Positions 590-920 are shown, counted from the stretch's first letter. The stretch is 1,538 nucleotides of DNA from Escherichia coli O157:H7 (GCF_013167455.1 NZ_CP038329.1), one strand, 5' to 3'. The notes: generated by a model from the letters alone, not told the origin. Translations and numbers: made by a program.

Positions 590-860
590 CCACGGTTCCG
601 GCTGCGCCTTGAGCGCAACCGGAAACCGTCTGGGGAGAACCCCAGACCCCCATCGCTGTAACACCGACGGTCTACGACCACCAACCAGCCGAATAGCTGC
701 CTGTGCCGTGCAAATAGGCTTTGCAGGGAGCTGACGCGGTTCCTGGCGACCTGAAAGCCCCTGGTTAGGGGTATCGGCGCGCCTGACCTCCTGAGAGCCT
801 CTGTAAGCGTTTTTCGCGCCTTCCATGCCCTGGCGGGCATTTAAACCCGTTTCGTGCGTC
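590..860 (+). other. ColE1/pMB1-type replication origin region: 3' half of an RNAII-like pre-primer and predicted RNA-to-DNA switch point near ~815-835; diverged and apparently lacking the 5' RNAII/RNAI region
   Basis: By-eye collinear similarity to the pBR322 origin region as recalled: GGGAGCT at 726-732 lies ~100 nt upstream of CCATG (826-830), as GGGAGCT lies ~115 nt upstream of CCTATGG at the pBR322 origin. On the minus strand, gaaaaacgcttacagaggctctcaggaggtcaggcg resembles caaaaatcgacgctcaagtcagaggtggcg and gataccc..ccagg resembles gataccaggcg. Order and orientation agree with the bom and pas-like blocks. No RNAI-like three-stem-loop element or terminator was seen at 260-560. Confidence 0.4.
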
Positions 861-920
861 TGAGAGCTTCTGAGCGTGTTTGAAGGGCTATCTGACGACT
901 CATCCCCGAAAGAACAACAA

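Follow-up and report, generated by a model that had tools for sequence, protein, structure and literature searches.

A lineage-specific 13-mer repeat in a putative G-site priming cassette of pKL1-type Escherichia coli plasmids

The stretch of DNA analyzed here (the window) is a whole 1538-bp plasmid from Escherichia coli O157:H7 that is 95% identical to pKL1 (NC_002145.1) from end to end. Its full-length matches by megablast, at up to 99.9% identity, are 1538–1546-bp E. coli and Shigella plasmids of the Col(MG828) type, and MOB-suite classifies 1.5-kb plasmids of this type as mobilizable. The repA product of 158 amino acids is the pKL1 RepA (159 of 159 aligned positions identical, counting the stop); it carries an HTH_36 domain, and its match to RepL lies below threshold. 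According to a secondary source (PMC3832669), the pKL1 oriV precedes rep and comprises an inverted repeat, Rep sites and an IHF box, and RepA is reported to form hexamers and to bind several sites. The reported oriV position corresponds to approximately 1330–1518 in the window. The word TGTCGCATCC occurs there three times without mismatch at 1386–1433, in two direct copies and one inverted, as a near-perfect palindrome, and elsewhere in the window this RepA operator word has one match only, with two mismatches, inside repA. The features of the plasmid are as follows.

1519, round the circle, to the stop at 457 (1–457), + strand: repA, the sole long open reading frame of the window.
712–858, − strand as the proposed active template: conserved structured element, proposed G site (G4-type ssi), modelled in the + orientation.
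717–728, − strand: terminal start block GGCTTTGCAGGG, which reads CCCTGCAAAGCC on the − strand; the most conserved 5' block of the element.
724–727 with 750–753: helix 2, short, from the RNAalifold consensus.
751–763, + strand: third, weaker repeat copy, CTGAAAGCCCCTG, with two mismatches, in phase and 40 nt upstream of copy 1.
776–820: stem A, GGCGCG (776–781) paired with CGCGCC (815–820).
791–803, + strand: repeat copy 1, CTGAGAGCCTCTG, inside the 33-nt loop (782–814) closed by stem A.
825–840: hairpin B, ATGCCC (825–830), loop TGGC and GGGCAT (835–840), with a conserved CCTTCC before it.
860–872, + strand: repeat copy 2, CTGAGAGCTTCTG, in the spacer that separates the conserved element from the pas-like site.
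921–954: 10-bp hairpin preceding the ColE1-type assembly site.
952–1010, + strand: ColE1-type primosome assembly site with GAAGCGG, 83% identical to ColE1 1309–1367.
1229–1288, − strand (inferred transferred strand): ColE1-type bom/oriT nick region, 98% identical to ColE1 1462–1521.
1386–1433: TGTCGCATCC in direct and inverted repeats ahead of repA, taken to be the RepA operator and the core of oriV.

The first-pass annotation had treated this DNA as a ColE1/pMB1-type origin and had placed an RNA-to-DNA switch region between two 13-mers. Rfam searches of the whole window at E values up to 1 return neither RNAI nor RNAII nor any other plasmid RNA; at the permissive threshold a single chance microRNA match appears at 1376–1441. 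No sigma-70-like promoter was detected in the window, and no + strand terminator was found after repA. Comparison with ColE1 by blastn gives matches at 952–1010, 1229–1288 and 1048–1075 only, and none to the left of 950, the interval 458–950 included. Because RNAI and RNAII are missing and ColE1 similarity is absent left of 950, the window is not classified as a ColE1-type replicon; by its sequence it is a pKL1-type plasmid that uses RepA. The identity with pKL1, the encoded RepA, the position of oriV upstream of rep and the lack of RNAI and RNAII thus make the ColE1 premise wrong, and the repeats do not flank a switch region of that kind.

The ColE1-like parts that are present lie downstream and keep their ColE1 order. 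ColE1 1309–1367, the counterpart of 952–1010, contains GAAGCGG and is situated approximately 110 nt downstream of the ColE1 ori motif; it is the single-strand initiation and PriA assembly site of ColE1, downstream of the leading-strand start. By the homology used to recognize phiX174-type pas sequences, 952–1010 has both the GAAGCGG match and the ColE1 order relative to bom. Its PriA dependence is predicted here from what is established for such sites. An ssi site is carried by ColE1-family plasmids (PMC5935869). The third match, 1048–1075, is an inverted partial copy of the bom region. It forms part of a 29-nt inverted repeat (1047–1075 and 1261–1289, 93% complementary) that encloses 185 nt; the right arm lies within bom/oriT, the left arm is 89% identical to ColE1 1494–1521, and the repeat is possibly a second relaxase-binding arm or a recombination remnant.

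The region between repA and the assembly site contains an element, 712–858, that recurs in many other plasmids with its structure conserved. The window copy scores 154 bits against a covariance model of the element. Compensatory variants of stem A include GGGGCG/CGCCCC in IncI2 and IncX4 plasmids, GGGGT/ACCCT in IncI2 copy 4, and GGCGG/CCGCC in R100 and in the IncI2 ori copy; hairpin B varies as ATCCGC/GCGGAT and ATGCCGC/GCGGCAT. In the consensus structure from 14 sequences, 93% of the cells assigned to pairs are paired, versus 34–53% when the partners are slid, nine pairs have changed on both sides, and none of 500 shuffles reaches the observed covariation score. A covariance-model alignment of 25 copies agrees with this structure (9–10 doubly changed pairs over the two alignments), in an alignment that leans towards the model and in which many changes are inherited within few lineages. 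Wobble pairs in stems A and B, read on the + strand, number 6 G-T versus 2 A-C, so the − strand is not favored by this measure. In the consensus, the predicted start CTG takes part in the pairing of helix 2. The folding energy is unremarkable: DNA folding of the window and of an IncI2 copy gives z = −0.6 to −1.5 whichever strand is used, and whole-region folding of 785–1015 does not stand out on either strand. No Rfam family matches the element.

The − strand of the start block contains CTGCAAAGCC, which is identical at 10 of 10 bases to phage G4 3996–4005, at the CTG where the annotated G4 primer (3970–3997) starts. The match extends to 11–14 nt in the IncI2 and Klebsiella MOBC copies, and no similarity to phage G4 was found beyond this block of 10–14 nt. 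Local alignment to G4 gives p values against shuffles of 0.01–0.29 over seven copies, with 0.09 for the window. The CTG of the start block is the sole − strand CTG in 712–900. Common to the window and the phage G4 origin of complementary-strand synthesis are CTGCAAAGCC, where the primer starts, and template-strand hairpins on the 5' side of that point; the two differ in the number, size and spacing of the hairpins, in the distance from the nearest hairpin to the CTG (about 31 nt in the window versus 3 nt in G4), and in the predicted pairing of the window's start CTG.

R100 carries a colinear homologue in which the start block lies approximately 385 bp, and the conserved core approximately 440–520 bp, past the right end of oriR, when that end is assumed at about 45,728 of the R100 stretch (L146). 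Similarity scores correspond to z = 5.8–7.2 for the window versus R100 and z = 88 for the IncI2 ori copy versus R100, in both cases on the same strand only. The equivalent IncI2 copy is downstream of the IncFII-like repA of that plasmid. The start block, the stem A arms, CCTTCCAT and hairpin B are colinear in R100 and the window, and the orientation relative to oriR and to the transferred strand is the same. In 1989 Masai and Arai reportedly found that primase alone primes the leading strand of R1 and R100, and that it does so at a G4-type G site some 400 bp downstream of oriR. Plasmid G sites, as Tanaka and coworkers reportedly described them in 1994, have conserved blocks in common, grouped into two outer domains with a dispensable middle between them, and their resemblance to G4 is confined to the vicinity of the primer start. 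The window shows this same pattern, with outer domains conserved around a variable middle and G4 identity only at the primer start. To judge from its position and from the similarity pattern, the R100 segment past oriR may be the published G site. The element at 712–858 is probably a member of the plasmid G-site family, a putative signal that most likely gives the host primase its starting point for DNA synthesis. By analogy with these systems we infer its primase dependence, start site, active strand and direction of synthesis. It differs from the R1 and R100 G sites in belonging to a 1.5-kb plasmid with a RepA of the HTH type, where it lies about 745 nt from oriV with repA between them, and in being fused to a ColE1-type PriA site.

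A second R100 copy (5521–5671 of L146, + strand) lies in the leading region next to oriT, flanked by a DUF932 gene and the SLT gene. This copy is weak (15 bits, E = 0.08; z = 13.8 versus the oriR-proximal copy) and keeps the start block, CCTTCCAT and hairpin B. The genes around both R100 copies, five IncI2 copies and the b and c copies of IncX4 are directed towards oriT, and the transferred strand, as deduced in R100, IncI2 and IncX4 from gene order, carries the element antisense, as in the window. This orientation agrees with a G site whose active strand is the leading-strand template or the transferred strand. The ColE1-type nick in the window is presumably on the − strand, in agreement with the ColE1 mob gene order, and the − strand would therefore again be the transferred strand. 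The ori-proximal copies of IncX4 and IncX1 begin only at the equivalent of window 790–793, and the start block is absent from them. These copies, the unexpected orientation of the IncX4 oriT-proximal copy, the paired start CTG, the wobble counts and the limited similarity to G4 all speak against the G-site assignment.

Several other identities were considered for the element. Frpo sequences resemble it in being repeated in leading regions upstream of early operons with an orientation specific to the transferred strand. They differ in that Frpo consists of hairpins of approximately 300 nt that rebuild −35 and −10 boxes, whereas the element is about 145 nt with 6-bp stems. A single-stranded DNA promoter of the Frpo type was rejected on size, on folding energy (z = −0.6 to −1.5) and on the lack of promoter boxes. 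Inspection by eye disposed of the remaining candidates: a Tus ter site, because conservation is lacking in the TGTAA core; within the stem A loop, an extended −10 promoter, for which there is no conserved −35 or T-7; an Xer/cer core, a DnaA box and an RfaH ops site; and a MOBQ-like nick site on the − strand, dropped because the element is repeated 2–5 times per plasmid, unlike an oriT.

Sensitive BLAST searches with 458–900 and 785–935 match approximately 780 plasmid records. Beyond pKL1-like plasmids, the hosts of the element include plasmids with a RepL initiator, IncX4 and IncX1 plasmids with pir-like initiators, an Arsenophonus plasmid with another RepA, and MOBC plasmids of Klebsiella and of a Plautia symbiont. 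A diverged form is present at 2–4 copies per plasmid in 1124 records, most of them conjugative, and the copies examined are in IncX4 and IncI2. Among complete E. coli genomes the element is found in 622 of 5426, at 815 plasmid and 4 chromosomal places. Most of the copies examined are co-oriented with the genes downstream; the exceptions are the IncX4 oriT-proximal copy, on the + strand with neighbors on the − strand, and a weak partial match in stretch L019. A BLAST search of phages with 760–940 retrieved no microvirus, only three short pKL1-like records and chance matches. A scan of genome contigs with a 14-base degenerate pattern, ill-suited to the purpose, gave only chance matches in unrelated taxa, and a full-text literature search for the core sequences of the element gave no match.

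Individual records from these searches are worth describing. Three entries labelled "Escherichia phage", OR844749.1 (1423 bp), OR844798.1 (1626 bp) and OX638291.1 (1949 bp), are 93–95% identical to 760–940 and look like pKL1-type plasmid DNA deposited as phage. One of the four chromosomal places, in E. coli NZ_CP093011.1 (5,189,791–5,189,935), holds the element at 96.6% identity and could be an integrated or misassembled pKL1-like plasmid. The 86-kb conjugative IncK2/Z plasmid p5312.29 (L011) carries the whole cassette, element and pas, at 2926–3236, adjoining a RepL gene and mobA genes; a cointegrated small plasmid is suggested because p5312.29 is also typed as Col(MG828). In the IncX4 plasmid (L145), a copy at 5795–5927 (+ strand), between ddp1/taxC and hicB, adjoins the presumed oriT; its stem A is GGCGC-AAA-GCGCC, with a few bases in the loop, and it runs the opposite way from the other leading-region copies. 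Those other copies lie at 5376–5600, 6105–6330 and 8328–8552 of IncI2 pHLJ111-18 (L144) and, on the − strand, at 7681–7835 and 9761–9915 of the IncX4 plasmid. Approximately 60 nt downstream of them comes a sigma-70-like promoter (TTGATA-17-TATTAT), which shares sequence with an 11-bp palindrome, and the genes beside them point towards oriT. Priming at these copies could make the promoter double-stranded early after transfer.

The 13-mer repeat lies partly within this element. Copies 1 and 2 are identical at 12 of 13 positions on the same strand, as the first-pass annotation had noted, including the single mismatch and the placement of the second copy; the first copy, given there as 790–802, starts one base later, and the separation, given as 70 bp, is 69 nt start to start. 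The extended similarity of about 23 nt that had been described is also present, at 17 of 22 positions without gaps (791–812 versus 860–881). Dinucleotide shuffles give 0.043 expected 13-mer pairs with at most one mismatch within 100 nt per sequence and 0.58 at any distance. The degenerate motif CTGAGAGCYTCTG, allowing up to three mismatches, is seen four times versus 0.59 expected, a count that none of 200 shuffles reaches. The repeat is real and modestly beyond chance, and composition, which had been raised as a reason to dismiss it, is a poor explanation at 0.043 expected within 100 nt.

The loop around copy 1 differs in sequence from one member of the element family to another, and in the IncX4 oriT-proximal copy the corresponding loop has shrunk to a few bases. 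The 13-mers, long-form copy 2 included, are kept in an IncX4 plasmid with a pir-like initiator and are absent from some RepA plasmids. They share no word with the RepA operator TGTCGCATCC. Compared with iterons or RepA sites, the 13-mers thus have neither a word in common with the operator nor co-variation with the initiator, and the proposal that they are a lineage-specific binding site is not borne out, the RepA word lying elsewhere and the long-form copy 2 occurring beside a pir-like initiator. Nor does the predicted RNA start fall between the repeats: it is near 725, to the left of both 13-mers. The copies are loop and spacer sequence, not paired sites defining an origin.

Copy 2 lies in a spacer outside the conserved element that is seen only in the pKL1-type cassette and its IncX derivatives. 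The spacer contains a TCTGAG-N4-TCTGAG tandem and varies in length by exactly 10 nt, with GTCTGAGAGCTTCTGAGCG as its long form. A 2784-bp Col(MG828) plasmid with the same RepA type, pCROD2 and an IncX1 plasmid have short forms, whose junctions differ. A 68-nt short-form query matches 663 plasmid records, 568 of them in the 80–90% identity band, and the small pKL1-like records sampled from that band all span 77–78 nt, which is the long form. Near-identical short forms make up 7 of the 663 records, and subsets of IncX4 and IncX1 plasmids are also short. The existence of short forms in nature and the 10-nt polymorphism identify copy 2, as read from these sequences, as a small tandem duplication that is common and not required. 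The suggestion of a small duplication therefore fits copy 2, which sits in a hotspot of 10-nt indels, and a functional necessity of the repeats is contradicted by relatives that persist in the short form without copy 2.

The 13-mers are the visible tip of a wider CTG pattern, because each of them is CTG-N7-CTG. The + strand of 712–900 (189 nt) has 11 CTG versus 1 CAG (shuffling, p = 0.0025), and the CTG starts keep a phase of approximately 10 nt (R = 0.81, p about 0.002 after scanning periods of 8–12). The excess and the phasing are common to pKL1 and absent from the R100, IncI2 and MOBC copies of the element; the pKL1-type copy has phased CTG-N7-CTG 13-mers, whereas the R100 and IncI2 copies have none. 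Between the leading-strand start and pas, the + strand has CTG versus CAG counts of 11 versus 0 in the window and 6 versus 1 in ColE1; the ColE1 interval ranks in the top 6.5% of its own windows for CTG bias, and 725–950 ranks in the top 3.6%. The CTG excess hints at primase start sites on the displaced strand, and slippage of a 10-nt unit or a protein bound to one face of the duplex are possible alternatives. The array could serve as a cluster of primase starts on the displaced strand between the G-site start and the PriA site, or a protein could bind it along one face and thereby set copy number in these plasmids, the smallest known from E. coli. A function of this kind for the CTG array of the pKL1 lineage is speculative and rather doubtful, as is the broader idea that the G-site family may switch on early genes through local conversion of the incoming strand to duplex.

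The explanation that we favor, with somewhat better than even confidence, is that 712–1010 of this RepA-dependent pKL1-type plasmid is a portable priming cassette that would use host factors, and that copy 2 resembles copy 1 owing to a 10-nt slippage duplication. RepA would open oriV upstream of repA, where opening has been reported, and rightward unwinding through repA would expose the G-site element. DnaG would then start an RNA primer on the − strand at the CTG complementary to 724–726, opposite T725, so that the RNA would begin with 5' AG at 725 and the primer, and then the leading strand, would run rightwards. In R1 and R100, the leading strand is primed after initiator-directed unwinding from oriV through repA. 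The displaced + strand would expose 952–1010, where a PriA primosome would assemble for lagging-strand synthesis, and the − strand site would also prime the complementary strand on the transferred strand after mobilization from the ColE1-type oriT. The CTGs of the 13-mers would at most add primase starts on the displaced + strand. This sequence of opening, unwinding and priming is drawn by analogy with R1 and ColE1. The window shares with ColE1/pMB1 a homologous and colinear pas and bom and a displaced strand that is CTG-rich from the start to pas. It differs in having no RNA II or RNA I, in encoding its own initiator, and in a leading-strand primer that is proposed to be made by primase at the G site after RepA opening elsewhere.

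The 13-mers at 751, 791 and 860 and the phased CTGs might instead form a protein-binding array on one face of the duplex, occupied by RepA or a host factor that organizes the priming region or controls copy number. The four motif occurrences versus 0.59 expected, the 11 CTG versus 1 CAG with 10-nt phasing (R = 0.81) and the same arrangement in pKL1 are all consistent with such an array, as are the hexamers and the binding to several sites reported for pKL1 RepA (PMC3832669). The 13-mers, however, are unlike the RepA operator word, which is confined to 1386–1431; an IncX4 plasmid with a pir-like initiator retains copies 1 and 2, natural short forms lack copy 2, and the CTG excess and phasing are missing from other family members. 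We know of no E. coli factor with a 13-mer motif of this kind, and an array of bound protein appears doubtful. The element may also act as RNA, located 3' to the repA coding sequence in its untranslated region and, in leading-region operons, in the 5' region, affecting transcript stability or read-through, with the 13-mers as loop and linker of that RNA. The co-orientation of most examined copies with downstream genes, the lack of a + strand terminator after repA and the wobble pairs that slightly favor the + sense agree with a role in RNA. They are set against the lack of an Rfam family and of promoter or terminator signals, the G4 start-site identity on the opposite strand, and the copies that lie past R100 oriR, next to oriT or joined to a PriA site, where signals for priming on single-stranded DNA would be expected; together these make an RNA function improbable.

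Chance resemblance arising from local composition draws on the 0.58 pairs expected per shuffle at any distance, on a region rich in CT, TG and GA dinucleotides, and on a repeat that was picked post hoc. The 0.043 pairs expected within 100 nt, the third copy, a motif count that beats 200 of 200 shuffles, and the 10-nt indel at copy 2, which is an actual duplication or deletion event, leave this explanation improbable as well. Processing of an RNA II primer between the two repeats of a ColE1/pMB1-type origin would account for the ColE1-type pas and bom that follow downstream in ColE1 order, and it is close to untenable in a plasmid that encodes the pKL1 initiator and has no RNAI or RNAII, no sigma-70-like promoter and no ColE1 similarity in 458–950. 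Under the favored priming-cassette explanation, the 13-mers look like dispensable by-products of small duplications, and the over-representation of the motif and its 10-nt phasing are not accounted for by a pure by-product model.

The repeat as such matters little: it is an ordinary, lineage-specific and partly dispensable repeat within a known kind of priming cassette, and its ColE1 reading is wrong. The pKL1-type plasmids, present in approximately 11% of complete E. coli genomes, gain a concrete, testable priming model composed of a putative G site, a predicted PriA site and a ColE1-type oriT. One unannotated structured element is found again and again, both next to unrelated replicons and in leading regions of IncI2 and IncX4 plasmids of the mcr-1 type, and its recurrence bears on how incoming plasmid DNA becomes double-stranded in a new host.
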